A stretch of DNA of 64,000 bases from an uncultured Actinomycetota bacterium (GTDB lineage Bacteria; Actinomycetota; Actinomycetes; JAFAQI01): contig CAVYQE010000002.1 in NCBI GenBank assembly GCA_963770565.1, positions 448,001-512,000 on the forward strand, in the 5' to 3' direction. The translations under genes and the position numbers were made by a program. This document shows positions 4,531 through 24,848 of the stretch, one piece after another. The stretch's first letter is position 1. Each line of letters begins with the position of its first letter. The notes under the pieces are model-generated. The model saw only the letters and a list, made by a program, of their open reading frames with translations. It had not been told where the DNA came from and made no database searches.

Positions 4531-4554
4531 GATCGAAAGAGTAACGCCCAAAGT

Positions 4555-5790: not shown

Positions 5791-7383
5791 TTATGGTTGT
5801 CGCAGTTTGACAGCGGTGAGCTTGGCAAGTGCCGCCCAGTGCGATGGGTGTGGCCGGGAGTGACCGGCTCGTATGCGGCTCGCGGAGCCCTTGCTGAGAC
5901 CGGTAGCGGCGACTATTTCAGCGAGTTTCACGCTCGCGAGTCCTGCATGGATTTCCGGCCATGTTGCGGGGTCGAACGCTCCGTCGCCGCCACCGTGCTC
6001 CCACGCCTTCTGCGCTCGTTTGCTTGCCGCGATCGCTCGCCCTCGCACGCTCCGCACGTGCTCGGAGTGGGCTGGATCGTCGGCCCGGCAGGACGGGCAC
6101 CGCACGTGGCGGGGGTTGGACACAGGCGCTCCGCATCCCGGGCAGGCGTAGAGCTGGGCTGCAGGCGACGGCCGCGAACGACGCACATGAACCTGAGCTC
6201 CTTTCCTTGCTCGGCCGGCCTTGTGGGCGGACCGGCTCAACACCGTAGGCACCTGAAGCGGGTCGGGAGCGTCGGCGCCGAGGCGACGCGCGATCTCCTC
6301 GGCGATGGGACTGCACACAGCACGTAGGGCGGGGAGAAGCGCCTTGGCGTAGTCGTGTGTCAGGGGTGCCAGAAGACGTATCTCACCGTCGGGTTGTTCG
6401 GCGAAGTCGGCCTTCCGGAACCGTCGGTCGGTACTGAGCGTCCAGACGGTTTCTTCGACGATCGCGCGGAGCGGCTCCATCAGGTCGAGCGCGAACGCGG
6501 GCCGGTTCGTCCGGTCGGCGTGGGCGAGGCCCATGGCTGGGTCGAGCCCGAGCGCGAGGGAGGCGATGGTGGCTTCGATCTCGGCGAGCCGGTATCCGTA
6601 GTTGAGCAGGGAGCAGGCGGGGGTGGCAGCATGCCGGTTGCTAGGTGCCTCATTGAGCGGGCTGGTGCGGGCGCCAAAGGCGGTCCAGTGCCCCGGGATG
6701 CGGGCCTTGTCCTTGGGGAGGAAGCCGAGGCGTAGCTCGTCGGCCCAGGCGGTCCAGTAATGCTCGGCAGCGTGCATCTCGATCACCATGAGCGCGGCTT
6801 GATCGGTCGCTGTGTCGAGGCTTGCGCCGAGTTCGTCGATGGCGGCGGCGCGGTCCTCGCGGTTGATCAAGTCACGGGTGATCCGTGCCTGGTCGCCAAG
6901 CCGCCGGTGGAGAAGTGTCCGGGTGATTTGTAGCCCGGTGTCGGTGTATGCGGCGAGGGCTTGGGCGCGTCGAAGTGCGCCGTGCCCGTAAAGCTGGGGC
7001 GCGCCAATCAGCAGGGGGTTGGCGGTCGGTCCGGCGACGATGAGTGCGGTGCCGAGATTGGCGCACCAGCCAGCCGCGTCGGTGGTCACAGTCCCGTGGC
7101 CGAGGATCAGGACCCGACGCACACCCCCGGCGGCGGCTTGGGCGCGGGTGATCCAACGGGTGCGTCGGTATTCGCCGATCCCGTCGATGACCTCCAGTGC
7201 GCCTTGTTGGACGCGAACCATGACGCCGTATCCGTCTCCGATCATGACCTCGCCGATCGTGTCGTCGGTGAAAGTGCGATGGGTGTTCTCGCGTCCGTCC
7301 TCGACGTCGTCGGCGGTGATGGCCCGCGGGTCAGGCGATCTCGGCGCTGTTGGTTGTTGGTGGGTAGCGTTTCGGGTTGCCAT
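5791..7383 (-). CDS. cas1: solo Cas1 (casposase) with C-terminal Zn finger and HTH
   Basis: IEMHAAEHYW, LLNYGY, GLDPAMGLAH, LDLMEPLR Cas1 motifs with catalytic E/H/E; CPGC..CPSC; C-terminal HTH; GGAG RBS-like sequence upstream. Confidence 0.92.
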   Translation of the reverse strand: MATRNATHQQPTAPRSPDPRAITADDVEDGRENTHRTFTDDTIGEVMIGDGYGVMVRVQQGALEVIDGIGEYRRTRWITRAQAAAGGVRRVLILGHGTVTTDAAGWCANLGTALIVAGPTANPLLIGAPQLYGHGALRRAQALAAYTDTGLQITRTLLHRRLGDQARITRDLINREDRAAAIDELGASLDTATDQAALMVIEMHAAEHYWTAWADELRLGFLPKDKARIPGHWTAFGARTSPLNEAPSNRHAATPACSLLNYGYRLAEIEATIASLALGLDPAMGLAHADRTNRPAFALDLMEPLRAIVEETVWTLSTDRRFRKADFAEQPDGEIRLLAPLTHDYAKALLPALRAVCSPIAEEIARRLGADAPDPLQVPTVLSRSAHKAGRARKGAQVHVRRSRPSPAAQLYACPGCGAPVSNPRHVRCPSCRADDPAHSEHVRSVRGRAIAASKRAQKAWEHGGGDGAFDPATWPEIHAGLASVKLAEIVAATGLSKGSASRIRAGHSRPHPSHWAALAKLTAVKLRQP

Positions 7384-7448
7384 GGGAGGTCCTTTCTCCT
7401 GTGGTCAGCCCCGGCGGTGTTAGCCCACCGTCGGGGCGCTTGTCGTTG

Positions 7449-8324
7449 CTAGTGGGTGCGAGCTCCGTTCTCGCGGTGCCGTTGGTTTGTCTTGGTGGCT
7501 TCGATGGCTGCCTGCATGGTGAGAGCTCCGACGATCGCGCCGACCATCGCCGTGATGTCCGAGGGTTCAATGGCGAGGGCGTTCACGGCTGCGGCTGTCA
7601 GGTCCCGAGCCTCGTCGAGTTCGGTGCGCGACGCTTTTCGCACCCAAGCAGCCGAGACGGCGGTACCGGTCTCCATAGGTCCGGCGGTCCCGTCGATCGG
7701 CGTCGCTGTGAGTGCCGCGAGGAATGACTCCGCGAGTTCCGCTTCGGTGGCATTCAGCTCTTCGTCGTCACCGGTGAGCGTTAGATGCACCTGCGCCAGA
7801 AGCGGCTTGAGCATGGGGGCAAGCTTTTCCGCTGCAGCCCGCAACGCGAAGTCGTCAGGGACGACCTCGCCCCGGACTTGTTTGAGGGCCGCTGCTGCAA
7901 GCACAGCGACGGTGTCGGGGTCGTCATCGAGGCCAAAGGGGAGTGGTTGCTCGTCGCGGCGACGGTGTGCCCGGTCCGGACCCCGGCCGGTGGATCCGGT
8001 TGCGGCGTAGTCCGTCTCGTTGATAACCGCTTCGAGCGCCGACCGCAGTCCCTCCTCACGCACCGCTGCGCCTCGCAGCCACGCGAGCACAGCGACCCGG
8101 TGGAGCTGGCGGACTTCAGTCGCTGCACGGCGGAGCGCGACCACGAGCTCGAACGTCCCCTTCGGGTACGCCGACGTCGTGACCCCGCGTCCCCGACGGG
8201 TGACCACCGAGGAGGGAATGAGCTTCTGCTCGCGCAGGTGCTGGACCTGACTGGCGGTCGCCGGCCAGCCAGCGGCGGTCGTCTGGGCGGCAAGGTCGAG
8301 GTCCGCGCGGCTGGGAAGTCCCAC
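7449..8324 (-). CDS. hypothetical protein with N-terminal HTH-like segment, upstream of cas1
   Basis: 291-aa ORF; GWPATASQVQHLREQKLIP resembles a MerR-like HTH start. Confidence 0.6.
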   Translation of the reverse strand: MGLPSRADLDLAAQTTAAGWPATASQVQHLREQKLIPSSVVTRRGRGVTTSAYPKGTFELVVALRRAATEVRQLHRVAVLAWLRGAAVREEGLRSALEAVINETDYAATGSTGRGPDRAHRRRDEQPLPFGLDDDPDTVAVLAAAALKQVRGEVVPDDFALRAAAEKLAPMLKPLLAQVHLTLTGDDEELNATEAELAESFLAALTATPIDGTAGPMETGTAVSAAWVRKASRTELDEARDLTAAAVNALAIEPSDITAMVGAIVGALTMQAAIEATKTNQRHRENGARTH

Positions 8325-8337
8325 GCCACCACTTTAC

Positions 8338-8423
8338 GCGGCACCACGATGCGACCTACTAGCGGCACCACGAAAAGGGCGGCTGCATCGGCGCTGATCG
8401 GAAGCGGCACCATGAAAGGGGCG
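8338..8423 (+). repeat. three direct repeats GCGGCACCAYGA in the divergent intergenic region
   Basis: copies start at 8338, 8362, 8404; copies 2 and 3 extend to 19/21 identity. Confidence 0.75.
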
Positions 8424-8448
8424 CCGAAGGCTTTCGCGCTGTATCCCG

Positions 8449-8673
8449 ATGGGCCATCGTGGGTTGGTGACGACGAGCACTGTGGTGGTGGCACTGCCGC
8501 CCGATTTGGTGGCCGCGGTGGACGCGGAGGCCCGTCGTCGGTTGCTGCGTCGTGGTGAGGTCTTGGCCGCCTTCCTCCGGGACGCCTGGCCGAGTTGGGT
8601 GCAGACCCAGCTTGAACGCGACCTCGCCAGAACACCGAACGCCAATCCAGCCGTCGACGAGACGGCGGACTGA
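8449..8673 (+). CDS. small ribbon-helix-helix/CopG-like protein
   Basis: STVVVALPPDLVAAVDAEARRRLLRRGEVL pattern; first gene of a tightly packed operon. Confidence 0.55.
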   Translation: MGHRGLVTTSTVVVALPPDLVAAVDAEARRRLLRRGEVLAAFLRDAWPSWVQTQLERDLARTPNANPAVDETAD

Positions 8674-8674
8674 G

Positions 8675-9193
8675 ATGCCGCGCCGAAAAACCCCCGGACC
8701 GTCGCCGCTGCGTGGTCGTACCACCTCGGCCGAGCGGGCAGCCAGGACGGCGCGGGAGCAAGCGAAGGCGCAGGCGGCAGGCTTCGGCTCAGCGTATGAG
8801 CAACGACTGGCCCGGGGTCGTGAGCGCGGATTGTCGCGATCGGTGGCGGGTGGGAAGCCGACGCCGCGTGAGGTGCCGCTGTCGAGTCAGCACCTGACCT
8901 TCTACTCAGTCCCGGTGCGCATCGGGTCGGGCACGGTGCTGGTGGATATCGAGACCCGGAACTTGCGTGGGGGGAGTGTGCTCGGCGCCTACCTGGCCGA
9001 CATCGGAGCGTTGCTGCGCGGGCGGCTGACCGCAGCGGAGTTCGAGGCACGGTGGCAGCGGCGGACGGTGGCCGGGCATCGGTTGGAGTCGCGGGCGGCG
9101 TTCGTGGTCGAGGCGATGCGCTCACGTGGCCCGCAGCCGGGTGAGCCGCGGTACCGCCGGGTGGCGGCCGGCGCCGGGGGTGGTTCCCGGTGA
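8675..9193 (+). CDS. basic hypothetical protein
   Basis: ATG 1 nt after the upstream stop; GTGA overlap with the next gene; Arg-rich. Confidence 0.65.
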   Translation: MPRRKTPGPSPLRGRTTSAERAARTAREQAKAQAAGFGSAYEQRLARGRERGLSRSVAGGKPTPREVPLSSQHLTFYSVPVRIGSGTVLVDIETRNLRGGSVLGAYLADIGALLRGRLTAAEFEARWQRRTVAGHRLESRAAFVVEAMRSRGPQPGEPRYRRVAAGAGGGSR

Positions 9194-9522
9194 TCGGCCG
9201 GTGCTCGCGTTGCGGCGTAATCGGTCCGATCGATCGGGATCACCCGTCGGGCCGGGACCACGACATTCCGTTGCACCCGGACTGGACGCTCCCGTTGTGC
9301 CGGGCGTGCTGTCACAAGCTGACGGGCCGGCTAGACCGCGGCGCGGGTGTGGAGGGCGGCGCACCGACAGTGCGACTGGTCGCGAGCCGGGTCGCTTCCC
9401 GGCTTGGCTGCTACGCGCTGACCGATGAACCGCTGGTGCTGGACCCGCAAGTGATCGCGACGTTCGCTCGTCTGGTCGCGGACGTGGCCCGGCGGGTGCC
9501 TGCGGACCTGGCGTGGGACTAG
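9190..9522 (+). CDS. HNH-type (Zn-binding) endonuclease-like protein
   Basis: CSRC...DRDH...LCRAC pattern. Confidence 0.65.
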   Translation: MIGRCSRCGVIGPIDRDHPSGRDHDIPLHPDWTLPLCRACCHKLTGRLDRGAGVEGGAPTVRLVASRVASRLGCYALTDEPLVLDPQVIATFARLVADVARRVPADLAWD

Positions 9523-9524
9523 CG

Positions 9525-12443
9525 GTGAGCGAGCTGTACCGGTTGCGGGTGCGCGGGCATGTCGATGCGTGCCCGAGACCGGCCGTCCGCGGGGAGCCGT
9601 GGGGGTGGGTGCGGGACACGCCGTGGCTGTTGCTGCATGTCCTCGCCGACGGGCGGGACCGTCCGCTGCTCGCGACCGCGCGCGACCTGCACGCGATCGT
9701 GTCTGAGAGCGGGGCGGGACGCGGGGTCGTTTGGTGTGCACGGCCGAGGACATCTACGCCACTGCGGACCGTCTCGACGGGCTGCGCGAGGCACTGCGGG
9801 GTGTGCTCCCGGATGTGCCTGCGGGCTTCGACGTCGAGGATCTGCGGGTCGAACCGTTGGCCCGGGTCGGGAAGCTGATCCGTGACTGTTCCTACCGGAA
9901 CCGGTGGCCGGTGATCGGCTGGGATCTGCCCTGGTTGTTCGGTCGGTGGGCTGAGCACGCCGGAAACGCCCAGGCCCGCGGCCGGGGTGGGTTCAGCCTG
10001 GTCCTGGCCGGGCTCGGCCGGTTCACTGACGGGACGTTCGTGGACGGCGTGGGAGGACAGCCCGGCGCTGCAGGTCATCCCCCGTCCGGGCGGGGACACC
10101 GGCGGGTTCTATCGGTGGGCGAACCCGAAGACCGACCGTTACCGCGGCAAGCACCCGGCCCGGTTCGTTGACCTGCGGGTCCTCGCGGGTGCGCTCGGCG
10201 GCGGGCAGGTTGAGACCCCGGCCGACGCCGCCCGCCTGTTCGACCTGACCTGGCCGGAGCCGTCCGACGACCCGGTGGCGCGGCTCCGCGCGGAAGCGGC
10301 CGCCTTAGGTGAGTTGGCGACCGCGTTGTTCCGTGCGATCGTCGCGGCGGCGCCTGGGTTGGACCCGGCCGCAGTCCAAAGCTTCGGCACCGATCGCCAC
10401 CCACCTGCTCGCAGAAGCGGGTGTCAGGCCACCGTTGGGCAAGACCCGCCGGCTGCCCCCGAATGATCTGGGCGATGCGGCGTCGGCGACGTTCGGTGGC
10501 CGGTTCGACGCTGCACTGGTTGGTGTCGCGCTCCCCGCGGTCCTGGTCGATATCAGCAAGACTTACGCGTCGCTGTTCGCGCTGCTCGGTCTGGACGGCG
10601 TGTACGGGTGTCGGGAGTTCCGCAGCGAACCCCGCGACCCGACCCTGATCGCGTCGCTGCTCACCGACCCGGCCGCGATCTGGCAAGCGGAGACCTGGGC
10701 CGAGCTGGGGTTGACGTTCGTCACGTTGCATCCGACCGGCCAACCATTGCCGTGCTCGGTGGAGCTTGCTCCGGGCCGGTGGCGGAGCATGGTCGCGCCG
10801 CTCGACCTGTCCGGCGGGAGTGCGACCTACCACTGGGCTGAGGTGCTCGCCGCGGTCGTGGCGGGCGCGGATCCCGCGAGCATTCAGATCGACCGGGTGT
10901 TCTCGATCCGGCCGGTCGGCACCCAACCCGACCTGACCCCGGTCCGGCTGGTCACCGGCCGCACCGTCGACCTCACCAGTGGCGAGCTCGGTGCGGCGCT
11001 GGTCACCGAAGCCACCCGCAGCGACCTCCCGCGGTGGCAGCGCAACCTGGCGCGGGCCACCGCGCAAGCCATCAGCTACGGGGTGCTGCTGCGGCACGAC
11101 CCGATCCCACGATCCGGCGAGACCAGCGCGGTCGGACCGGGCGGGCATCGGGTCACCGTCCGAGCCGCCAGGCCGGAGCGACCGGGACCGTTCACGTTCC
11201 TTCCCGCCGGTGCCGCGGTGTGCGCCGCCACCCGGCTGATCATCGCCTTGCTCACCGCCGAGCTACGAGCAGCCGGCAGCGCGGCGATGGCGATCCACGC
11301 CGACAGCGTCACGATCCCCTGCACCCCGACCGGCGAGAGTTTCCCGGTCGACGGCGCATCCGACGGACGCCTCCGCACCCTCACCCCCGGCCAGCTCGAC
11401 CAGCTGCTCGACGGGTTCGCGCCGCTCGGGATCACCTTCCGCACCGAGGTCGCCAACCCCGACGGTCGCACCCACGGGCTCGTGGTCGGGGTCAACAAGA
11501 CCGTCTTCGCCCAGCACCGCGCCGACCGGTCATGGCAGGTCGTGCGCAGCAGCGACACCGGGCTCGGGGGGAGCCTCGCCGACCCGTCCGACACCCCGGG
11601 CACCCGGACCCCGGACGGTCGGTGGCAATGGAGCGCCACCCTCGAAACCACGATGTTCCCCCGGGACGAGCCGGCTCCGCTGCCCGGATGGGTGGACCGG
11701 CCGGTGGTGCGCCGCTACACCGCCAACACCCCCGCCGTGCTGGCGCAGCTGAGGGACGAGCTCGCCGACCCGACCGTGATGCCGTTCGCCCGGTACCTGC
11801 GCGCCGAACCGCTGGTCGGCACCGGCGGGCCGGTCGCGCTCGGCCCCTGGCCCGACCCGGCCCGCTGGGCCGAGGCCGGCTGGCGGTTGCACGGCAAACC
11901 GGTCACCGACCCAGCCGGGTCCTGCCGGGCCCACCCGGCAGGGCTCGCCTACACCCTGACTCGGACGGTCAGCGACTACTTCACGGCGTGGGCCACACCG
12001 AACGATCCGAGCACCACCGGACCGGAGCGCGGCCTTCGCGACCCGGTCCCGATCCGATCCGCTCTTGGGCTGACCGTGGTCGTCGGCCGGGACTCCGCCG
12101 ACCTGCCGGACACCGAGCCCGACCCGGCGATGCCCAACCCCACCAGCCGCCTGGTGTACGGGCACACCGCCCAAGCCGAACTCCGGAACCGCATCCGCGA
12201 CATCGGGCCGCGCCGATTCAGTCAACAGTCCGGGATCGCGTGGTCGACCGTGTCGCAGTACGTCAACGACCGGCCCGGCAGCCCGCAGCTCACTCAACGG
12301 ATCGCGATCGCGCTCGCCCGTTACACCCCCACGCCACGCGCGACCCGCCTCGTGCCGTGCGGGCACTGCAACAAGCCACCAGCCGCCGAAGGTGGTGCTC
12401 GGACCGGTGCCGGATGGCCGCGACCCGAGCCGGTGCCGCGTGA
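9525..12443 (+). CDS. polB: casposon-type family B DNA polymerase-like gene, split by about 4 frameshifts, with C-terminal HTH and Zn finger
   Basis: pieces in ORFs 9513, 9731, 9987, 10309 and the end of 11034..12443; FGGR..VDISKTYAS (motif A), ISYG (B), ERPGPFTF..ATRL, IHADS (C); CGHC..WCSDRC terminus. Confidence 0.75.
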
Positions 12444-12892
12444 CCCGATCCCCCCGATCCCCGGCGCCACGGGTGTACGTGGCGCACCCGCTCAGCAGCT
12501 ACTCGACCCCGCACGCCACCACGACCCTGGCCGCGCTCCGCGTTGTGTTGCCGGGCGCAGAGATGGTCGACCCGGAGCACTGCGGTTGGGACGGCAACGA
12601 CGACTGGCGGCACGGCTGGCCAGACCTGCTCGGCACATTGACCGGGCTGGTCGTGTTCGCCGCGACCGACGGCACGATCGGGACCGGATGCCTCAACGAG
12701 ATCACCGACGCGATCACCGTCGGCCTTCCGGTCGCCGCCTACGACAAGCAGCTCGGGCTCGTCGAGCTCGCCGGATCCGCGCTCGTCCCCGCCGGTCAGC
12801 GCGACCCAGCCCGGGTGGCGTGGCTGGCATACGGGCCCCCGTTCGACCCGACAGCCTTCACGCGACGGGCCTGTTTGCGGGTGGCGCGGTGA
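12440..12892 (+). CDS. nucleoside 2-deoxyribosyltransferase/N-glycosidase-like protein
   Basis: VYVAHP and GTIGTGCLNEI..A..GLPV motifs; GTGA overlap with the polB stop. Confidence 0.6.
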   Translation: MTRSPRSPAPRVYVAHPLSSYSTPHATTTLAALRVVLPGAEMVDPEHCGWDGNDDWRHGWPDLLGTLTGLVVFAATDGTIGTGCLNEITDAITVGLPVAAYDKQLGLVELAGSALVPAGQRDPARVAWLAYGPPFDPTAFTRRACLRVAR

Positions 12893-13455
12893 AGCGACCG
12901 GGGCGGCGGCTGCCCGCCACGGCGGCTCGCGACCCTGGCCGGACGGTGACGCCCCCCGGAATACTCGCCGCATTCGCCCCCCTCGCGGAGGCGGCACCGG
13001 GGCGGGTTCTCGACCGGGGCGCAAGAACGGCTAAGGGGCGACACCCCCAAAGGTGCCACAGAACTACGGGCACCGAATAGGAGCGGCATCGGGGGCAGAA
13101 CTGCGGCCCCGGGGCCTGCCCGAACGCCCGCGGAGAAGCCCCCGGAAACAATCCGTTGATCCGGTGTTGCGCCCCGTATGAGGCGGAAGGGACCCCGAAT
13201 TCGGCCCCCGCCCACTTATGCGCCCCGGGGCGTGAAACGGGGCGCCCCCTAATCCATACGGGGCAGAACACACCGCACCCCATCGACGAAGCACGAGTGC
13301 ACGAAGGAAGCGCCCCGGCGGCGGGGGTCGAGGCACGAGGGGGACGCAACCGGTCACCGCACGCCGCACCCTCTATAAATCCGCGGTAAACCCGCTGGCC
13401 ATCCAGGGCACCTGATTTGGCTGCAGGGTCGCGGTGGCCCCGTTAACCTCCGGCC

Positions 13456-13911
13456 ATGCGACGCGCCACGCTAAACCTCCCGGTCCTGCTGGTAATGGCG
13501 TTCGCTCTCACCGCTGCCGGCTGTAGCGCCGGCACCCCAAAGCCCGCGCCCACCGTAACGCGAACCGTGACTACAAAACCGGTGACAACCAGCGGGGACG
13601 CCGGGACTCTCCAACCAGAGTCCTGCCAACGCGTCTCCAGCGGCGCAGACGGCAACGTTTCCCCGGTGTTATGCCCGGACGGGCACCCCAACGCCTACGC
13701 CATGCCCACCCTGGAATCCACCGCATCAGCGATGTTCTCCCTCGGGGAGTTCGCTACCACTGGCCAGATCGAAAACGCGGCCTGCCGCGACCTCCCCCAC
13801 TCCACCAACCCGATCGAGCAAAGCGCATACCAGTTCATGCAAGCCCTCAACGGATGGCAGTTCGGAATCGACCCCACCGACAACGGACTGTTCTCATACT
13901 GCCAACCATGA
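13456..13911 (+). CDS. lipoprotein
   Basis: LTAAGC lipobox; TATAAAT at 13374-13380 upstream. Confidence 0.7.
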   Translation: MRRATLNLPVLLVMAFALTAAGCSAGTPKPAPTVTRTVTTKPVTTSGDAGTLQPESCQRVSSGADGNVSPVLCPDGHPNAYAMPTLESTASAMFSLGEFATTGQIENAACRDLPHSTNPIEQSAYQFMQALNGWQFGIDPTDNGLFSYCQP

Positions 13912-14677
13912 AGCGTGCTGCCCCATCGCTGTCAGCGTGCTGGAACGGCACGTATGGATCACCTACACCACGCGAGGGCGTGCCCACGACGAAACGCTCG
14001 TGCTCCTACGGCGGCGGGGCCACATTTAGGCGCGCAGTCGCGAGCTGTCGCCATAGCCGCCAACGCAGGGCACGTTCTTCGGGCGCGCGTTGTCGCACAG
14101 TTCGACGTAGTTCATGAGGATCATTCGGACAGACGGCGGCGATACAGGCAGCCAGCCATTGGACTGGAGTCACTCACGTAGAGCACATTAAGCGGCCTTG
14201 ACGGCCAGCGTGAAGTATGTAGAGGACAGCTCGACCAAGTGAGCGACGCGCACGACGAGGACAACTTGCGCGTGGAGTTGCACTGTCGCCGGTAACCGGC
14301 ATTGCGACGCGATGGACTGAGAAGTCGCTGCGGTCGCAGTCTCGGCACGGCCCAGGATCCGAGTTCGACGGCAAGCAGGCAATGCAGGGCGTCGCGGCAC
14401 CTAAGGGAACTTCACAGAAGTCGAGTGACGACTGGGCGACGACGCTGCACCACTACAGCGCGGCGACGAGAAGCGTGAGCGAAAGGACCGGCCAAGACGC
14501 GCACTCAGATGCCCGTCAGACGGCGCGCGCAGTTCAGCATCGCGTTCCACAGGGACTTGATGATGACCAGGTGCCTCCGGGCCAACACAAGTAGAAGGTA
14601 ACGCCGGCTAGGTCCGGGTTGGGTGGGGATCTTCAGGGTGCCGGGAGACAGGCTTCCGGCCTGATCTGGAAGGGTCC

Positions 14678-15590
14678 GTGATGACCATGACCGAGCTGTC
14701 TTTGACGACGAGCGACGCGACGCGATTGGCGATGGCGGCGTTCCTGGCCCGCTACCGCGAACCGACCCTCACCGCTTACACGCAAGACCTCGGTCCTACT
14801 CGGCCTGGTGCACCAGCAGTACAACCGGCGAGGTGCTCCATGTCACCCGCGGCCGAGCTTGAGATGTACGTCCGGCAGATGGAGAGCCCGCGGGTACGCC
14901 GCCGCGACGATCGCTCGCCGCTTCGGCACCGTCGCCACCTTCTATAAGTACGCGGTCATCGACGGGCTCATCACGGCCAACCCGGCGGACGCCGTCACGC
15001 GCCCGAAGGATGGCATGGGAGGGGCAGAGGCGCACCGTGCTGCACCCGCTGGAGTTCGCGGCACTGCTGTCCGCTGCCCGCACGTCCAGCCCGAACGACC
15101 ACGCGCTTGTCTGTCTGCTCGGCATGCTTGGTCTGCGCGTCTCCGAAGCGTGCAACGCCGACATCACCGACATCCGGTACGAGTCCGGCTACGAGCTGCT
15201 GCACGTCATCGGCAAGGGCGCCAAGCCGGCCGACATCCCGCTGCCGATCCCGGTTCTGAGAGCGGTGCGGGAGGCGATCGATGGACGCGACGAGCGGACC
15301 GATCCTGCAGCACCCGGACCGGGCGGCGGATGGACCGGCCGGCGCCAGCAGGGCGCTCGTCCGGGTGGCCCGCGCCGCAGGCGATCAGCCACCAGATAAG
15401 CCCGCACGGCCTGCGGCGGACCTTCTGCACCACTGGCCTTGTCGCTGGCATCGCGATCAGAGACATGCAGTACGCGATGCGGCACGCGGACCCGCGTACG
15501 ACCCTGCGGTACGACATGGCCAAGGCCAACCTCGACCGCCACGCGGCGCATGCCGTCGCCGCCTACCTGGCCGGCATGAGCACCGGCTGA
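14678..15590 (+). pseudogene. tyrosine recombinase (XerD-like), multiply frameshifted
   Basis: GLRVSE, GKG, HGLRR, RHAD, LRY catalytic motifs spread over several frames. Confidence 0.85.
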
Positions 15591-15660
15591 GCCCGGACCT
15601 AGCCGGCGTTCTGTCCGCGCCGCTGGGGAACGATTGACCGGCACGGGGCGTCGTATCACC

Positions 15661-16080
15661 ATGAAGACCATGCGAGTGAGGGTTGGATGGGCCGCGTCCG
15701 CCACAGCGGCGGCCGCGCTGGTCGCTGGTTGCACTCACGCAGCCGCGCCCGCTTCGAGCCCTGTCGCCGAACCAACCAGCCCTGCGCTCGGCACTGTCGT
15801 TGGTAGTTTCAGAGCGGGAGCCGGGCCGGATGGTGGCTCGGGCGGCCCGCTACCGGGCGTGGTTACGGTCAGGCTGCACACGATTGGCGGGCGCGTCGTC
15901 GCCTCCGCACACGCCGACACGACCGGCAGGTTCCACTTCGCGCTCCGACCCGGTCGCTACGCATCGAGCGCGATCGCGCTCAAGAAGTTGCCGTGTCATG
16001 TTGGGCCCACGCCTCCCCAGCGTGTCAACGTGGTGGCGGGTCACGTCGCGCGAGTCGTCCTGATCTGCCCCGTTGGGTAG
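15661..16080 (+). CDS. lipoprotein
   Basis: LVAGC lipobox; beta-rich TDxxGRF..LRPGRY-like segment. Confidence 0.65.
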   Translation: MKTMRVRVGWAASATAAAALVAGCTHAAAPASSPVAEPTSPALGTVVGSFRAGAGPDGGSGGPLPGVVTVRLHTIGGRVVASAHADTTGRFHFALRPGRYASSAIALKKLPCHVGPTPPQRVNVVAGHVARVVLICPVG

Positions 16081-16129
16081 GCACGCCGAAGCGCCGATAC
16101 ATAGCACTCGAACTCGCGGTATGGATCGC

Positions 16130-16735
16130 TCAGCCGCGGAGTTCGGTGTAGGGCGATAGATCGATCAGGTCGCCACGGCAGACGCCGACATTCCTCCTTG
16201 CGATCAGGGATGCCGAGGCCCGCGAAGTTTCGACGCGCAGATCGGCCGAGAGGCTAGCGCCACACTCCGCTCCCCGGTCAACGATGAGATAGGCGTAGGC
16301 GGTGCCGCCCGCCGCGACGGCCACGCTTTCGGAATGGAGTGCGCTCGTGGCGCCAGCGACGATCGGCGGGTATGGCCACCTTGTGGATGGGTGAACGCGA
16401 GTCCATGAACGTGGTGCGGAGGTACGTGTCAGGCGCAGGTACGGGTAGCCCTGGAGTGCACAGGCGCGTCGCGAACGGTTGCGGAATCCGAGGACGTACG
16501 CCGATTCGTGATTGTCGACAACGTGCCCAGTGGCATCCATGGTGATCGCGACCACCGCCGGAGCACACCTCGACAGAGGCGTATCGACGAGGCCAACGGG
16601 TGCCGTTGTCCGGGCCGTCGTGGCCCGTGGCGTCGACGTTGGCGGCGTCTGGGTCGGTCCCGACGCCGATCCCGAGCACCCGGTGAGGAGCCACACCGCG
16701 ACGCATGCGGCCGCCACCGACGTGATGCGCATCAT
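16130..16735 (-). CDS. DUF4232-like lipoprotein
   Basis: LTGC lipobox; FRNRSRRACALQGYP motif. Confidence 0.7.
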   Translation of the reverse strand: MMRITSVAAACVAVWLLTGCSGSASGPTQTPPTSTPRATTARTTAPVGLVDTPLSRCAPAVVAITMDATGHVVDNHESAYVLGFRNRSRRACALQGYPYLRLTRTSAPRSWTRVHPSTRWPYPPIVAGATSALHSESVAVAAGGTAYAYLIVDRGAECGASLSADLRVETSRASASLIARRNVGVCRGDLIDLSPYTELRG

Positions 16736-16809
16736 GACAGTGTGACGTAGTCAAGCCTCTGAAGGTTGGCTCTCACCAATCGGCTTCTGTACCGCGCGAT
16801 AGGTGATGC

Positions 16810-18150
16810 CATAACGGAGCGGGGCCTCCCGCTCCTGTGAGTACCGCAGGAGACTGCGGTTGCTCATAAACCCACATGGTGAGGGAGGCCACCAATGAGT
16901 GACGGTATCGCTAGGAAGAAGCAGTTCGTCGGCGTCGACCTGCATCTGCACCGGTCGGTGATCGTGCGGATCGACAACCGCGGTCGCGAGCTCGAGTGCG
17001 TGCGGATCGACAACTCTGTGTCCGGCCTTGTCGCTGAAGTGGCGAAGGCTGGGCAGGGTGCGCCGGTCGCGATCGAGGCGACATATGGCTGGTACTGGGC
17101 GGTCGACGCGTTGCAGGCGAAGGGTTTCGAGGTGCATCTCGCGCACCCGTACGGGATGAAGCAGATGCGGAAGCGGCGCCGGGTGAAGACTGACCATGCG
17201 GATGCGCTGGAGTTGGCGCGGCTGATGCGGCTTGGTTCACTGCCGGAGGCCTACATCGCCCCGGTCGAGCTTCGGGAGCTGCGGGAGCTGGTCCGCCACC
17301 GCCAGCAGCTGACGAAGGTCGCGACCTGCAACCAAGGGCGGGATCCGCGCCGGGTTGGCGAAGCACGGGATCCGTCTGCCGGTCAGCAAGCTGAACACGG
17401 TTGCTGGGTCGGATCTGCTCGATGAGCTACGGCTTCCGGGCTACTACGGGCAGCGGCTCGCCGCGCAACGCCGGATGATGATGCTCGTCGAAGACGAGCT
17501 GGCTCGGGTGGAGCGCGAGCTGGACCGTCGGTTGAAGACCGACCCGGACTACCGGCGGCTGCAGAGGATCAAAGGGATCGGTCCGATCCTCGCGGCGGTG
17601 TTCGTCGTCGAGATCGGTGATGTGAGCCGGTTCCGCAACGCGGCCGCGATCACCTGCTGGGCCGGGCTGACTCCACGGGTGCATGAGTCCGACCGGCGCC
17701 GACACGACGGCTCGATCAGCAAGGAAGGCTGCGCCCTGGTCCGGTGGGCCGCAGTCGAATCGGTGCAACGCCAATGCGAACCAGTCATCCGAGCCGTCCG
17801 GGACGACATCCTCGCCCGCCGCGGGAAGAGAGCGAAGAACACCGCGAAAGTCGCCGCCGCCAGGCGGATGCTCGAGGTCGTCTACTACACGCTGCGTGAC
17901 GGTGAGGCCCGTTGCCTGACCAAGCCGGTCGCCGCCGCGTGAACACCGTCAAGACTTCGTGCGGGTCGAAGTAGCGGCATGACCCACCCTCGGGTGCGGT
18001 CGACGAAGTGAATGACCCCACGACCCTGGAACCCAGGGACGCTCGCACGGCTTCATGCTGACCACCACGTCGCGAAGGGATGCCTGACAGCAAACTGGCT
18101 GTCGCCGAGCTCTGCCATTTCAAACTGAAGCCGAACCTGACAACCACATA
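16810..18150 (+). mobile_element. IS110-family element (ends tentative)
   Basis: transposase 16895-17942; no TIRs; CATA at 16810-16813 and 18147-18150 as candidate core. Confidence 0.7.
16895..17942 (+). CDS. IS110 recombinase/transposase, one frameshift near 17330
   Basis: VGVDLH, IEAT, KTDHADA (RuvC-like DEDD); KGIGPI, WAGLTP..ES. Confidence 0.92.
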
Positions 18151-18372
18151 GCGACGCCGGCAACACAGTCTGCGTCAACCACGAGACGGCCTCAACACCG
18201 TTCGTCCTCGCGCTCCGCGCTCCGGGCGCTGCGTGTTGACCCCGCCCCGCGATCGACGCCGCCCTTGATCTGCCGACCATCGCCGAAGAACGCTCAAAAC
18301 AAACAGTTGACGGCCCCACTCCGTTCAGGGATGCCGTTCTCGATCGTTCCCGGCCGGCGGACCTGTCGGTGG

Positions 18373-19636
18373 TTACGAGGCGGGTCGCAGGATGGCGAGG
18401 CCGACGGGGCTGGCGTCGCAGTGGCAGCTGGGCGCGAAGGTGCCGATGATAATGAGTCCCTGTCGTGTCCATACGTCGTCGTACAGTCGAGTGAGGTGGC
18501 GGAGTCGCGGTGCGGGGTACCACGTGCGGCTTGCCGGGTCGTAGGCGGCGACGGCGCCTTCGGCGTCAGGGCCGAAGTCTTGACCACCGAAGCCTTCGCC
18601 GCCCTGGATGCCACTGATCACGCGTCCAGTGACGAGGGCGCTGGCCATGTCGCGACGAACGGTGTCATGTGCAGCGTGGTGGTCCTCGTGGTGCCGAGCC
18701 GGATGAGCTGTGGGTCCGGGTCGATGCCAATCCCGCAGAAGGAGCCGAGCGGGCAGTCCTGGCCAGCGATGAGCTGCTGAGGCCCGAAGCTCTGAGCCGT
18801 GTCGACGGTGACCGGGAGTGTCGGCTGGGGCTGTCTTTCCCAGCGGTCGCCGTCGAGGCGGTAGAGGTGCGCGGTCTCATGCCCGCTGGGATCGTTCGCG
18901 GTCAGGAACGCCCAGATGGAGGTGCCCTGCACGTAAGCGGCGGCGGAGCCAGATACGGAAGGCTGGGCAGCCGGGTCCAGGTCGAGCCGTCGACCCGCAT
19001 CGCCTGGCTGTCGTTCATGACAACCGCAAGCTGCGAGTCGGCGACCACGAGTGCGCCTTTGAGAATCTCGGGCGGGTCGAGCATGGTCCACCGGTTCGTG
19101 GCGGGGTTCAGCTCCGCGTCGTGTCCCCAGTCGTCGATGATGATTGCTCGCGAGCCGGTCCACGCTGCCTGCCAGCCGCCGTCGAGACGCAGCTGGGACG
19201 GCGGTGCCGCGAGCCGCCGCCACTGGCCGGTCTGCAGGTCGTAGAGCGCGACGCCGTCCTGACAGGTCTTCGGCCCGTCGGACAGGACGGCCAGAACGCC
19301 GAAGCTGGTCGACAGCACCTGTGAGATGCACTGCGCGATCGACGTCGGAACCGGGGTGACCTTCGACCAACTCCCGTCAGCGATCTGCTGCGCTGACGGT
19401 CCGGTCAGCCGGGCGGCTGGCACGGTCGGCTTCGCTGCGCTGAACGAGCCTGCGATGTCGACCGCGGCGAGCAAGACGAGTGCAACCAAGGCCGCTGACA
19501 GCACGACCGTGACGGACCGACGAGTCCGGCGCTGGCTGGCAGCGCGGTCGAGCATCTCCCGAACCGGCGCCGGCCCAACCGGGAAGCTCGCGCGCCGCTG
19601 GAGCGCATCGCGCAGCACGGCGAGGGAGTCACTCAT
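18373..19636 (-). pseudogene. membrane-anchored Kelch/propeller-like protein downstream of the ECF sigma factor (frameshifted)
   Basis: pieces in ORFs 18902, 18618, 18373; TM helix; repeated YD/NPxxxxW motifs. Confidence 0.55.
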
Positions 19637-20123
19637 CGCCGACCTCCATCTCATCGCGTGCCTGATCGACCCGAAGCGCGACAAGCGCACGGTGCGCCCG
19701 CGACTTCACCGTCCCAACCGAACACCGCAGCATTCTCGCGATCTCCGCCTCGCTGCAGTCGCAGTAATAACGAAGCACCACCACCGCCCGCTGCTCCGGC
19801 GGAAGCGCGGACAACGCCCGCTCGAGCACCATCGCCGACTCGACCCCGAGCGCTGCATCCGGCGTTGAACGCTCCGGCATCGATAGCGTCGGCACCTCAC
19901 CACGCCACCTGCGCTGCCCGGCCCGCAGCGCGAGCCTGCTCATCACCGTGCGGGTATAGGCGAGCGGGTCGTCCACCGAGGACCACCGGCGGTAGGTCTT
20001 CAACAGCGCAACCTGCGCGAGGTCCTCACCCGCCGCAGGGTCGGGCGCGAGCAGCCGCCCGGTCCGCACCAGCGCGGCCCACGACGACTCCACAAACCGC
20101 GTGAAGTCCTCGTCGTGGCCCAC
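19629..20123 (-). CDS. ECF sigma factor (actinobacterial SigE-like family)
   Basis: GEDLAQVALLKTYRRW; LPPEQRAVVVLRYY..SEAEIA..GTVKSR. Confidence 0.92.
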   Translation of the reverse strand: MGHDEDFTRFVESSWAALVRTGRLLAPDPAAGEDLAQVALLKTYRRWSSVDDPLAYTRTVMSRLALRAGQRRWRGEVPTLSMPERSTPDAALGVESAMVLERALSALPPEQRAVVVLRYYCDCSEAEIARMLRCSVGTVKSRAHRALVALRVDQARDEMEVGDE

Positions 20124-20653
20124 ACCTAATAAGAGCACCGATGGCCCGAAGAAGGTTCCCCAAGACACAGTCCTTCTGCAACGGACTGCGGTCACGACCG
20201 ACCGCCGAGTAAGTGCCGCTACCGTCGGGCACCATCCCTGCCGTTCGGATCGGGGCCGCTAGGTGGAAATGAGGTCAGTAGCGCGTTCCAAACCCCGCCG
20301 CAACCTAATCGGCTCGGCCACCGGCATGGACCATACTGCGTCGAACTGTCGGCAAGTCGCGCAATGGGGATCCGCGCCGCCGTCATGTTCACCGCGGTGA
20401 GCTCGTCCACCGGCCATTGCGAGGTCGAACAGCGCGTCGATGGCTTGCCAGGTCACTCCGTCGCCCTGCACCACAAGGCCGTCTCTCGACCCGAAGTCGT
20501 CGTCCGCCTCGAGAATCCGAGCGGCGTTTTAACGCGCGGCATGCGTGGGTCTCGCGCCCGGTCCGTCCACCAAGAGCATCACGCGCGGCAAGCAACGCGT
20601 CCGATGCGTTGCCTTTGCGGAGGTTCTGCAGTCTGAGATAGCGGGACGGCATG

Positions 20654-21358
20654 TCAGCGCCAGTCCGAGCCTGACAGGTTCACACTCGCTGCGCCGTATA
20701 TGTCATCGAAGGTGATCCCACCGAAGTTGATCGCGTTGAGACGCCTCGTGGTGTAGTCGACCGTCACGACCTGTTGCAGTTTCGTATCTCCGAGGTTGTT
20801 CGTCTCAGGGAAATATCCGAAGATCCCGACCTCGCGCAACATTGGATAGTCGCTTTCGTAGGTCTTGATGATCTGGAGCATGTTGTAGACATCTTCCTTC
20901 GCCCCGCCGGTCCGAAGACCCTGCGTCAGGTTGTCCTGGATCAAGAAGGGCACCGACAGGAACCGACCGCTGTACTTCAGGCGGACGATCCGTGGCGAAC
21001 CGGCGTAGATTCGACTTCCCTAGCTTGTTCAAAGGGTGGCTTTGAGCGATGTTGGCGCACTCGGCGATGAGGCTCCAGGTGGCGAAGTCGAGGGCCCGGG
21101 CGATGACGAGGACTTTCCATTAGGGCTGACCGCGTTGCCGATAATGCCGACGACCGCTAGCACTGCCACAACGGTGAGAACAACGGACCATGCGGGATGG
21201 CGCTTTACCCAGGACCGCGAGTCCCCTGGCCAGAAGTTCCAACCTTCCAGTGGCGGGCCCCATGACGGATCGGGGGTCCAGCCGGCCGGTGGCGACCAAC
21301 CAGGCGACGGCGAAGCCGGCCAGTTCGGCGGAGGCGTCCAAGCCATGGGGCGGACCAT
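20654..21358 (-). pseudogene. hypothetical membrane protein, frameshifted
   Basis: WTPPPNWP..GWTPDPSWGP N-terminus with TM helix (21029..21358) continuing into 20654..20953. Confidence 0.5.
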
Positions 21359-21536
21359 AGACCCTGGCGGGGACGATAGACCCAGGGGAATGATCCGATG
21401 CCGACCACACCCAACTCAGTTGCGCCCGCACACGCACTCCACCGTTTTGGACGCGTGGGGCTAGCGCCTGCCGTAGCTATTCCATGCTGGGTCCCTGCCG
21501 CCGCTGGGGCTCGTCTGCTCGTCGGTGCCAGCTGTT

Positions 21537-22877
21537 TGAATCGCCCTGGGTTGCTTGGAGGCTCCAGACCTTGGAAACGAGGATGGAGTCATGGGGAACG
21601 AAGGCACACCGGGAAGCCGACTACGCGTCGGTACTCACCGGAGGAGAAGGCGCAGGCGGTCCGGTTGGTGCGTCAGCTGCGCAAGGAGCTCGGGCACCGA
21701 GCACGGGACGGTCCAGCGGGTCGCCGAGCAGCTCGGCTCGGGGTGGAGTCGTTGCGGTCTGGGTGAAGCAGGCCGAGATCGATGACGGTCGAGCCGGGCA
21801 CGACGACCGTCGGAGGCGAAGCGGATCAAGGAGCTCGAGCAGGAGAACCGGAGCTGCGGCGGGCGAACGCGATCTCTGAAGTCGGCGTCGGCTTTTTTCG
21901 CGGCGGAGCTCGACCGCCCACAGAGGTGATGGTCGCGTTACATCGACGAGCACCGCGACGAGTTCGGAGTCGAGCCCATCTGCCGCACGTTGCAGGTGGC
22001 TCCGAGCACGTACTACGCGGCGAAGTCCCGGCCGCGTCGTCGGCGCGGGCGGTGCGCGACGCGGTGATGATGCAGGTCCTGATGGTGTTGTGGGTCGCGA
22101 ACCGCAAGGTCTACGGGGCACACAAGCTCTGGAAAGCGGCCCGCGGGCCGGCCATGACATCGGCCGGGATCAGGTCGCCCGACTGATGCGTGAACTGGCC
22201 ATCGAGGGCGTCTCCCGACGCCGCAAGAAGGTGTTCACCACCCGGGCCGATCCCGACGCGATCCGAGCGCCGGATCTCGTCAACCGGAACTTCACCGCCG
22301 ACCGGCCCGACGCGTTGTGGGTCACCGACCTGACCTATGTGCCGACCCGGTCGGGGATGGCGTACGTGTGTTTCATCGTCGACGCGTTCACCCGCCGCAT
22401 CGTTGGCTGGCGGGTCGCGTCGAACATGCGCACCGCGATGGTCCTGGACGCGCTCGAGATGGCCCGCGACGATCCCGCGGCGGGAAACGATTCGTCGGGC
22501 TCGTGACCCATTCCGATGCCGGCGTCGCAATTCACGTCGGTGCGGTTCACGGAGCGACTCGACGAGATCGGCGCACGCCCATCGATCGGCACCGTCGCCG
22601 ATTCGTACGACAACGCGCTGGCTGAGACGACCAACGGGCTCTACAAGACCGAGTGCGTCTACGGACCCGACACCAACGGCTGGGACGACGTCGACGAACT
22701 CGAACTCGCGACGCTGTCATGGGTGCACTGGTTCAACGACGACCGCCTCCACAGCCACTGCAACGACATGCCACCCGCAGAGTTCGAAGACAGCGTTCTA
22801 CGCTGCGCTCGACAGACCGACCAGCGAGGCGGTTGGAATCCAATAACCCGAGCCTCCATCAGACCCAGGGCGATTCA
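21537..22877 (+). mobile_element. IS3-family insertion sequence, frameshifted orfA/orfB
   Basis: TGAATCGCCCTGGG.../...CCCAGGGCGATTCA ends, 3-bp TSD GTT, WVTDLTYV, HSD, DNALAE integrase-core motifs. Confidence 0.95.
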
Positions 22878-22935
22878 GTTCGGGGGCTGTTGTTCGTTTG
22901 GGTGGCCCTTCTTTTGGCCCTTCCCATCCCTTCCC
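22878..22935 (-). repeat. right terminal inverted repeat (58 bp)
   Basis: exact reverse complement of 3110-3167. Confidence 0.95.
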
Positions 22936-22950
22936 GCACTTCGTGCCGGT
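22936..22950 (+). repeat. right 15-bp target-site duplication
   Basis: identical to 3095-3109. Confidence 0.93.
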
Positions 22951-22992
22951 GGGAAGGGATGGGAAGACAGAAACCCCAACACCAGCCACCGA
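22951..22992 (+). mobile_element. left end of a second, related casposon-like element (extent unknown)
   Basis: first 16 nt identical to the TIR start; AACACCAGC and CCAGCCACCG also occur near the first element's left end. Confidence 0.6.
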
Positions 22993-23283
22993 CGGAGCAA
23001 GGCCCGGAGCCGGCCTCCCAACCCCTGGCATAGGCACCCCTACAACGGAGCCCCACGCGTCCAGAACGGTGGCGAACAGAGGGGTGAACCCTTCAGGGCC
23101 TGGCCGCCGCTTCGGCTGAGAGGTTCAGCGGCGCCGCGCTGGCCACGGCCGACGGGTCGACTCGCCACTCCTCTGGGTGCGTGTCGACGTACAGCTCAAC
23201 GGCGTTGCCGTCGGGATCCGAGACGATGAGCGCCTTGCTCACCCGAAAGTCGAACGCCGCGTGCACAACAACACCCTTGGCAT

Positions 23284-24412
23284 CTAGTGTCGCGCGTCAT
23301 TAGTTCCTTTACATTGGGGTGAGTTCGCGTCATGCTGTGGCATGGCGCTGTTGACTGCAGGTGTGCAGATCCCTGAGGCGGACCGGGCGACGCTTCAGAG
23401 CTGGTCTCGGTCGACGTCGATCAAGGCCGGGCTGGTGACTCGGGCCAGGATCGTCCTTGCTGCCGGTGACGGCTTGGGCACGACCTCGATCGCTTCGAAG
23501 CTTGGGGTGTCCAGGCCGACGGTGATCCAGTGGCGTGAGCGGTATGCCGCCGAAGGCTTGGCCGGGCTGCAGGACGATCCGCGGTCGGGTCGGCCGAAGA
23601 CGGTCGACGACGCGGCGATCCTGGCGATGACGCTCGACCCGCCGCCGGAGCGCCTTGGGGTGACGCACTGGTCCACCCGCCTGCTGGCGGCGGAGCTGAA
23701 GGTCGGCGATGCGACCGTGGCGCGGACGTGGCGCAAGTACTGCGTGCAGCCGTGGCGGCGCGGGACGTTCAAGTTCAGCACCGACCCTGAGTTGGTGGCG
23801 AAGGTCCACGACGTCGTCGGCCTCTACCTGAACCCGCCGGAGAAGGCAGTCGTGCTCTGCGTCGATGAGAAGAGCCAGATCCAGGCACTCGATCGGACCG
23901 CCCCGATCCTGCCGATGCGCCCAGGGCTGCCGGAGAAGGCCACCCACGACTACAAGCGCAACGGCACCGCGACCTTGTTCGCCGCTCTAGAAGTCGCGAC
24001 CGGCAAGGTCACCGACGCCGTCTATGAACGGCACGGAAAAGCCGAGTTCCTCGCGTTCATGAAGCAGGTCGCGAAGGCCTACCCGCGACGTGAGCTCCAC
24101 GTCGTGCTGGACAACTACCACACCCACAAGCACACCGAAGTCCAAGCCTGGCTAGCGAAGAACCCTCGCGTCACCTTGCACTTCACACCCACATCGGGGT
24201 CGTGGATGAACATGGTCGAGATCTTTTTCGGGATCATCACCCGCCAAGCGATCCGGCGCGGCAGCTTCGCCAACGTCAAAGAACTCATGGTCGCGATCAG
24301 CCGCTTCATCGACGGCTGGAACAACCGCTGCCACCCATTCACCTGGACAAAAACGGCGGACGAGATCCTGCCTCACGCCACCCGTCAAGCAACTTCAGAC
24401 GCGCGACACTAG
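23284..24412 (+). mobile_element. IS630-family element
   Basis: CTAGTGTCGCGCGTC / GACGCGCGACACTAG inverted ends including the duplicated CTAG/TA site. Confidence 0.95.
23342..24412 (+). CDS. IS630 transposase (intact)
   Basis: VDEKS, LDNY..H, SGSWMNMVE DDE motifs. Confidence 0.95.
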   Translation: MALLTAGVQIPEADRATLQSWSRSTSIKAGLVTRARIVLAAGDGLGTTSIASKLGVSRPTVIQWRERYAAEGLAGLQDDPRSGRPKTVDDAAILAMTLDPPPERLGVTHWSTRLLAAELKVGDATVARTWRKYCVQPWRRGTFKFSTDPELVAKVHDVVGLYLNPPEKAVVLCVDEKSQIQALDRTAPILPMRPGLPEKATHDYKRNGTATLFAALEVATGKVTDAVYERHGKAEFLAFMKQVAKAYPRRELHVVLDNYHTHKHTEVQAWLAKNPRVTLHFTPTSGSWMNMVEIFFGIITRQAIRRGSFANVKELMVAISRFIDGWNNRCHPFTWTKTADEILPHATRQATSDARH

Positions 24413-24848
24413 GTCGGCTTTGGCCGCAACGAGCTCGTCCACGGTGTCGCCGATCTTGAACGCGAAGTGGTGCAGCCCGATCGGCCCTCCAGGCCCGTCC
24501 GCATCGCCCTGGACCAAGGCGAGGTCGTGGTGGTTGTCGCCCGTCGACAGGAAGACCATCAGACCTTCGCCGAACTCGCCTCGGCCCACTTCCCGCAGCC
24601 CAAGCACGTCGCCGTAAAACGCCAGCGAGTCCTCGACGTCGCGCACCCGCAGCACGACGTGCCCGACCTTCGAGATGCGGAAACTTGCGCTCGTCATCGG
24701 TCTCCGTTCGCACCCGGACGGAACGGCCTGACATTACCGCAGGTTCGTGCCCGTTCCCATATCGCAAGTACCGCTCTTAGGCGGCGAAGCTCTGGCGCCT
24801 CGAGGTGGCGTCCCTTGTCGGTCTGAACGTCAGGAGACCGTCGGCTCG

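Follow-up and report, generated by a model that had tools for sequence, protein, structure and literature searches.

A casposon at a bacterial tRNA-Arg(CCT) gene shares its target-site duplication with the probable solo-end relic of an older casposon

Our analysis of a 64,000-nucleotide window of DNA from an uncultured Actinomycetota bacterium (contig CAVYQE010000002.1, positions 448,001 to 512,000) shows two casposon ends arranged head to tail and separated only by one target-site duplication (TSD). The right terminal inverted repeat (TIR) of a full element, E1, runs to 22935, the TSD occupies 22936-22950, and a second casposon terminus, E2, starts at 22951. We consider it probable that an older, related casposon formerly occupied the tRNA-Arg(CCT) site and left this second terminus as its relic, and that E1 arrived on the relic's tRNA-proximal side. 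E2 as it stands today is, with good confidence, a solo end of that older casposon and not a second full element.

E1 is a casposon, since it has TIRs and a TSD, an intact Cas1-family protein and a PolB-family homologue (Table 1). Its two TSD copies are identical at 15 of 15 positions, and the adjoining tRNA-Arg(CCT) gene is the only tRNA gene in the window. The TIRs match at 58 of 58 positions (58-59 bp perfect) and are 94% identical out to 67 nt, the long inverted repeat pairing 3110-3176 with 22869-22935. The Cas1-type casposase gene lies within the TIR-bounded element, and its product matches the profiles PF01867 (3.7e-35) and TIGR00287 (1.4e-26). Casposase homologues are 61-32% identical, with C414, C417 and C429 invariant in the homologue alignment, and the closest named ones belong to Acidimicrobiales MAGs. 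A general repeat scan showed no CRISPR-like repeat array.

The polymerase gene of E1 carries two frame changes relative to its homologues at places where those of the metagenomic loci L047 and L050 are continuous; the E1 copy is a pseudogene unless the changes are assembly indels. L047, the closest relative, has a frame change of its own about 15 codons from one of those in E1, and these are either independent breaks or a sign of an error-prone stretch. Of 80 metagenome loci (80 of 452 relatives), 26 have a homologue of E1 polB beside the casposase gene. We were unable to match the window's own copy to Pfam (with E values up to 10 tried for fragments) or to the PDB, and a PDB search with a 16-sequence polB profile returned nothing meaningful. 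The consensus of these 16 relatives does show exonuclease and polymerase motifs, which we take to be Exo I-III and Pol A/B/C of family-B polymerases, and 4 of the 16 match PF03175. A protein-atlas match (score 0.95), in a cluster where 12% of members carry PF03175, serves as a lead only. The small open reading frame (ORF) at 9145-9522 has no Pfam or NCBIfam match.

Further signs of decay in E1 include two insertion sequences (IS), both with split transposase genes, in addition to a polB that lies in three frames. Such decay is hard to reconcile with a very recent transposition driven by E1 itself, unless the missing functions came from another copy or the frameshifts are assembly errors. One of the insertion sequences, the IS3-family element, sits exactly at the inner edge of the E1 right TIR and has its rve domain split over two frames. 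The Fic/DOC and NYN genes lie just within the left end of E1, and outside E1 the former has relatives in a single casposon locus, L089, and the latter likewise in L050. The two may be accessory defence or toxin-like cargo.

Table 1. Features of the tRNA-Arg(CCT) locus, in window coordinates.
Feature	Position	Strand	Basis or remark
tRNA-Arg(CCT), integration target	3025..3098	+	ARAGORN and sequence; last 4 nt overlap the TSD
Left TSD copy, 15 bp, GCACTTCGTGCCGGT	3095..3109	+	Exact window copies only here and at 22936
Casposon E1, 19,826 bp	3110..22935	.	TIR and TSD, Cas1, PolB homologue
E1 left TIR, 58 nt	3110..3167	+	100% identical to right TIR; weaker pairing up to 3176
Fic/DOC-domain protein, cargo	3355..4572	-	Pfam PF13784 and PF02661
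NYN-domain protein, cargo	4959..5561	-	Pfam PF01936
Casposase, Cas1 core with C-terminal Cys cluster and HTH-like tail	5791..7383	-	Intact frame, 530 aa
Small ORF, CxxC...DH...CxxCCH pattern	9145..9522	+	HNH-like by eye only; kept beside polB in L046 and L047
Family-B DNA polymerase homologue	9731..12440	+	Three frames: 9731-10171, 9987-10466, 10309-12440
Partial tyrosine-recombinase ORF, cargo or relic	14808..15590	+	PF00589 (9.8e-07), C-terminal part only
IS110-family transposase, two overlapping ORFs	16895..17942	+	PF01548 and PF02371
ECF-type sigma factor (19629-20195) and Kelch-like protein (18902-19690), cargo	18902..20195	-	Domain search
E1 right-end subterminal block	21439..21462	-	23/24 in common with E2
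IS3-family insertion sequence, 1,341 bp	21537..22877	+	39-nt inverted ends, 3-bp duplication GTT, rve domains
E1 right TIR	22878..22935	-	Inverted repeat with left TIR
Right TSD copy, common to E1 and E2	22936..22950	+	Exact repeat of left copy
E2, 142 bp, probable solo left-end relic of older related casposon	22951..23092	+	TIR terminus 22951-22966 and subterminal block 23049-23072
Host glyoxalase/VOC-family gene, split by IS630-family element (23284-24408)	23093..24697	-	Pfam; G003 synteny

An earlier reading made from the sequence only had noted that the right TSD is followed at once by a 16-of-16 match to the start of the TIR. We found exactly this at 22951-22966, so that the order of tRNA, repeat, E1, repeat and E2 start can be seen directly. 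That reading had also proposed a contig-wide search with mismatches allowed. For the 16-mer GGGAAGGGATGGGAAG, a search of the 4,428,154-base genome with up to two mismatches returned three exact sites and no others, all at this locus: 3110-3125 (+), 22920-22935 (-) and 22951-22966 (+). The third copy lies directly 3' of the right TSD in the orientation of the left end. The reversed pattern, as a control, gave four inexact matches. Within the window, with up to three mismatches, there were again three matches, every one exact, whereas shuffled windows gave a mean of 0.48 and reached three matches in 2 of 100 shuffles. The three-copy observation holds and goes far beyond what chance would give.

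Together the TSD and the 16-mer form a 31-nt direct repeat that is 100% identical between its two copies, and the right junction, from the E1 end across the TSD to the E2 start, is able to fold as a 16-bp hairpin. We rejected the reading of all 31 bp as the TSD, as the 16-mer is part of the inverted repeat at both E1 ends and the TSDs of relatives measure 13-15 bp. An exact copy of the TSD 15-mer at C1:1427965 was taken as chance; it lies inside a coding sequence with no adjoining TIR.

Beyond the 16-mer, E2 diverges from both ends of E1. Apart from the 16-mer and a 24-nt block described below, it agrees with them at 26 of 42 positions over positions 17-58 and at 65-71 of 112 farther in, values no better than those of other end pairs and counted without a shuffle control, which weighs against the relic reading. 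The sequence-only reading had described this divergence and the short blocks that E2 (22978-22991) shares with the E1 left end (3164-3172, 3190-3199); they are present, and on their own they are weak evidence. It had missed a stronger, 24-nt block. This block, AGCCCCACGCGTCCAGAACGGTGG, at 23049-23072 and about 100 nt from the E2 terminus, is complementary at 23 of 24 positions to 21439-21462 of E1, and a related copy is found at the E1 left end. The E1 right subterminal block is also the best non-self match of E2 anywhere in the genome (blastn, E = 2.4e-4).

E2 has no ORF of its own, and it fits the definition of a solo-TIR as terminal sequence at a casposon target without casposon genes. We found no second unit carrying genes of its own, a right TIR and a distal TSD; host synteny sets in at 23093. 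The statement in the earlier reading that the window holds no matching right TIR or third TSD stands, and it extends to the whole genome. Its description of the locus as a tandem casposon array is borne out for the shared-TSD junction and fails for the number of casposons, the present state being one casposon plus a solo end.

Sequence around CCCACGCGTCC recurs about 100-130 nt from three casposon ends (3228-3249, 21439-21462 and 23049-23072), and casposon ends in L048 and L063 carry a similar CGCCCACGTGGCGGC block. This subterminal block is possibly a conserved cis element, for instance a casposase HTH site or a promoter.

We aligned the contigs of four public soil sequencing runs (X1, X2, X4 and X5) to window positions 21000-24600 (3.6 kb). 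A 300-nt contig from X1 (record 2) matches 22936-23032 with 0 differences, and its 203 unmatched letters end in the 30-mer GGTAGGTCACAGGTTCAAATCCTGTCGGGG, which is window 3065-3094, the 3' part of the tRNA just before the left TSD. The contig thus reads as an allele with the tRNA 3' end, one TSD and E2, and without E1. Because it joins the tRNA directly to the TSD and E2, it shows that E2 can occupy the site when E1 is not there, and it puts E1 between the tRNA and an older relic. The proposal in the sequence-only reading that an older related element occupied the site and a newer one inserted next to the tRNA is upheld by this contig together with the end homology of E2 beyond the 16-mer. In the E1-free allele, E1 either never arrived or was precisely excised. 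Logan contigs are built with 31-letter words, and this one crosses the 31-bp exact repeat at a depth of about 3, so that a false assembly path is conceivable.

No contig in the four runs bridges the junction of E1 right TIR, TSD and E2, which is taken from the genome assembly alone. The E1-specific segment 21000-21483 has no cover in these runs, which is not evidence that E1 is missing there, and 22815-22935 is covered solely by an X5 contig that represents an IS3 copy in another context. Each of the 20 sequencing runs listed contains less than half of the words sampled from 22700-23300.

These features leave an improbable alternative, in which E1 entered by homologous recombination or was threaded in by the assembler. 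A circular E1, with its right TIR, TSD and left TIR joined, would have 31 bp of identity with the TSD and E2 start; as the direct repeat is exact over 31 bp and not just 15, both routes would give the sequence observed, and no metagenome contig bridges 22935/22936. Against recombination, 31 bp is short for a RecA-type event, and four metagenomic relatives (L063, L072, L098 and L111), which show 13-15-bp duplications at perfect TIRs even without a second end, support the ordinary cut-and-fill process. A circular intermediate with one TSD has been hypothesised, and not detected, for MetMaz-C1 (PMC10359463). Even on the recombination or assembly route, E2 would still be the relic of an older casposon.

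It is very unlikely that E2 never was a full element and arose by an abortive or single-ended casposase reaction, or by integration of a short TIR-ended fragment. E2 does have one end only, and casposases carry out single-ended and short-duplex integrations in vitro (PMC5137440). However, its roughly 140 bp of subterminal sequence, with a conserved block about 100 nt in, is more than a terminal duplex, and a two-ended mini-element predicts a right TIR and third TSD at 23093, where we found neither. Solo ends that derive from the decay of full elements are, in addition, documented (PMC4779613).

In the sister species G003, contig C151 aligns from window position 23093, through the glyoxalase-family gene and into the genes after it, at 89-92% identity over about 4.2 kb aligned, without the IS630-family element, similar to the 91% identity between the two genomes in the upstream tRNA flank. 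The genes from 23 kb onward, which the sequence-only reading had proposed to check for accessory status, are collinear with G003 and are therefore chromosome and not cargo, and E2 accordingly comprises 142 bp only. That reading had left E2 as either a remnant or an element extending beyond the window; the remnant half holds, and the extension does not, given the synteny from 23093. A large second element, with E2 as its left end, the genes from 23 kb as its cargo and a right end lost or beyond the window, is thus highly improbable. The lack of any right TIR or third TSD in our searches would suit such an element, but the collinearity speaks against it, as do the ordinary chromosomal genes downstream of E2 (a two-component system, MMPL, an ammonium transporter and GTP cyclohydrolase) and a search that found no second casposase or PolB near E2.

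The sole other Cas1-like match is on contig C1 (G000:C1:243877-244587), is 35% identical over residues 91-333, and may belong to a CRISPR-Cas locus. The IS630-family element at 23284-24408, which encodes a DDE_3 transposase, is missing in G003, and an X4 metagenome contig joins 23283 to 24409; from these two observations, the insertion is polymorphic.

The tRNA-Arg loci of 15 relatives were compared, and 14 of them lack the 16-mer. G003 alone carries it after the tRNA, where it extends into a longer E1-like TIR (34 of 42 over positions 17-58) and is then followed by unrelated genes. In G014, from another genus, the flank is TSD-like (11 of 12 nt following GCA) and gives way to unrelated DNA. 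The 16-mer is thus not a native flank of this tRNA. The notion that it is native host sequence or chance, with the E1 TIRs merely similar to it, is barely credible: the X1 contig shows tRNA, TSD and 16-mer without E1, which on its own fits the finding that the sequence-only reading had named as counter-evidence (the 16-mer after this tRNA in relatives free of casposons), but the three exact copies in 4.43 Mb all lie at casposon termini, E2 has the 24-nt block in common with the other end of E1, and the L072 and G014 flanks, like those of the 14 tRNA-Arg loci, are without the 16-mer, G003 being an exception with a longer E1-like TIR.

At the G003 locus (G003:C362; L044 1-1777), 15 nt separate the same tRNA-Arg(CCT) from the E1-like TIR, and the 15-mer there is a different one, GCACTTCGCGCGAGC. 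For the genes after this TIR we found neither a Pfam match nor a relative in G000 or the 80 casposon loci, and the locus could be either a second relic or an element that is non-autonomous. In the G003 assembly, which is 92% complete in 550 contigs, we found no casposase (E <= 1e-20, and by Cas1 alignment) and no PolB (with G000 as a positive control); the Cas1-alignment search had no positive control, and given the completeness of the assembly this result is to be read as not found and not as absent. There was likewise no casposase match at E <= 1e-20 in any of 40 related genomes, and a single-protein scan of genome contigs of close relatives gave no casposase relative.

Complete elements with TIRs and 13-15-bp TSDs occur in four (L063, L072, L098 and L111) of the 39 metagenome loci that are 8 kb or longer. 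L072 carries its casposon at a tRNA-Arg(CCT) gene, with a 15-bp TSD, 35-nt TIRs and nothing TIR-like past the distal TSD. We then took 17 recognisable TIR termini in 13 metagenome loci and scored the sequence 10-22 nt beyond each as a possible head-to-head partner. In both L084 and L124 the partner matches at 12 of 12 positions, at 14-nt spacing; the remaining termini score 3-8 of 12. The segments L084 12976-13020 and L124 9994-10079 are TIR-TSD-TIR junctions like that of the window, the arms in L124 being 36 nt long and 92% complementary. In L063 (21231-21617), a different, L048-like casposon-type end directly follows the right TSD, beside a tRNA/tmRNA-like 3' end. Two ambiguous cases were not counted: the right flank of L111, which reads GGGGTA and then diverges (8/12), and L112, which is TIR-like with an indel (7/12 ungapped). 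At least three metagenomic relatives have a second end directly after a TSD-length spacer. Second casposon ends with a TSD in common thus recur within this bacterial clade, which suggests that the behaviour is general there.

An earlier junction screen, which required arms of at least 13 nt and a third copy in the same locus, found the window alone; it missed L084 and L124, whose distal ends are off-contig, and was replaced by the terminus-based test. Five TIR-library matches (L047:3421, L048:21497, L067:2587, L072:11800 and L107:605) were dropped before the partner test as likely chance, because they have three mismatches to the TIR type of another locus and no flanking end features.

Flanks of other loci may fall into further types. 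L064 (5939) and L080 (162) have near-identical TIR starts, GGGATAGGGGATAGAGGG, and similar coding-like flanks (...GCGCACCTC.CCGAC...), which suggests a second conserved target type. A third may be represented by L098, L111, L112 and L125, whose 14-16-nt flanks start with GTCAA(T/C).

We propose the following course of events at the window's locus. The casposase would recognise the 3' region of the tRNA (the bases contacted being those expected by analogy with A. boonei) and cut the DNA with a 15-bp stagger immediately beyond the acceptor stem. It would then join the TIR ends at the cut site, and gap repair would duplicate the 15 bp. With the tRNA and the tRNA-proximal TSD copy intact, the site would still be competent for integration, and the next element, E1, could insert between the tRNA and the older element, leaving a TSD common to both; E1's integration was presumably catalysed by a casposase. 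The older element would have been cut down by deletion to its first 142 bp, losing its genes, right TIR and distal TSD, at a time that could be later or earlier than the arrival of E1.

The idea of tandem casposons and solo-TIRs is itself not new, and the locus is a bacterial instance of a known layout. In Methanosarcina, tandem casposons that share a TSD and solo-TIRs have been reported (Krupovic et al, 2016; PMC4779613). As described there, the tandems of Methanosarcina sp. 2.H.T.1A.3 and 2.H.A.1B.4 resemble ours in lying, in one case, at a tRNA 3' end and in having one degraded partner, and they are read as repeated use of one regenerated target, as we read ours. They belong to archaeal family 2, lie at tRNA-Leu or in intergenic DNA, and have 14-bp TSDs and two full-length partners (PMC4779613). 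Unlike them, the present locus comes from a high-GC soil bacterium and combines a tRNA-Arg(CCT) target and a 15-bp TSD with an older partner of 142 bp. The solo-TIRs of Methanosarcina mazei are like E2 in being terminal sequence left at a target without casposon genes, but according to the same source they occur at sites without a full casposon, while E2 lies beside one and keeps about 125 nt of subterminal sequence (PMC4779613). Because E2 is directly beside a full casposon, the relative order of the two can be read.

For AciBoo-C1 of A. boonei, a segment of the upstream tRNA T-arm is required and downstream sequence is dispensable, and arrays polarised toward the upstream side were predicted from this target (Beguin et al, 2016; PMC5137440). 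That element likewise has a 15-bp TSD at a tRNA 3' end, and the polarity predicted is the one seen here; in contrast, it is archaeal, uses tRNA-Pro and was shown biochemically, as given in that paper, while our locus is known from sequence alone. MetMaz-C1, as reported in PMC10359463, leaves a single clean target on excision in vivo, and its reinsertion into the same target gives tandems. It is an experimental archaeal system, whereas we describe a natural polymorphism in a metagenome; given the precise excision reported for it, the E1-free allele could be ancestral or an excision product (PMC10359463).

In host and, with its polymerase and HNH-like genes as putative counterparts, in gene content, E1 resembles the family 3 casposons described by Krupovic et al (2014; PMC4046053), which have bacterial hosts, a Cas1 with additional zinc-binding and HTH parts, a protein-primed-type PolB and a small HNH-like ORF; E1 is a candidate member of that family. 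An HNH endonuclease gene is stated there for all family 2 and 3 elements, and the text of that paper mentions tRNA targets for five euryarchaeal casposons only (PMC4046053). Our full-text literature search returned no paper pairing casposons with tRNA-Arg, although supplementary tables of surveys may list such sites, and it found casposons and solo-TIRs paired in Methanosarcina papers only, supplementary tables lying outside the search. As far as sequence can show, the locus appears to work as the Methanosarcina, A. boonei and MetMaz-C1 cases do.

The CRISPR adaptation module is proposed to descend from casposons, and tandem arrays and solo-TIRs have been used to argue that casposon integration is polarised like spacer acquisition. 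The observations behind this argument, in the sources cited here, come from Methanosarcina genomes and from experiments with archaeal casposases (PMC4779613, PMC5137440, PMC10359463). What the window's locus adds is a bacterial example that uses tRNA-Arg(CCT) as its target, a full element next to a relic, from which the order of events can be read, and a natural allele without the newer element. The exact 31-bp repeat is of CRISPR-repeat size, and its two copies flank one "spacer-like" insert beside a fixed "leader", the tRNA. A broader idea, which we put forward as speculative and on balance unlikely, is that serial tRNA-proximal integration is frequent in the bacterial casposon clade and that older units decay to direct repeats of TSD and TIR terminus. 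If this were true, such loci would be natural intermediates on the way from casposon ends to CRISPR repeats, and they could be counted and dated in bacteria.

Elsewhere in the window, a 36-nt perfect hairpin unit with 13-nt arms and a 10-nt loop (GCACTTCGTG or its complement) occurs at 40866-40901 and 57063-57098, in opposite orientations. The loop GCACTTCGTG has 10 nt in common with the start of the casposon TSD, a likeness that may only reflect a small GCAC-TTC-GTGC stem-loop present in both.
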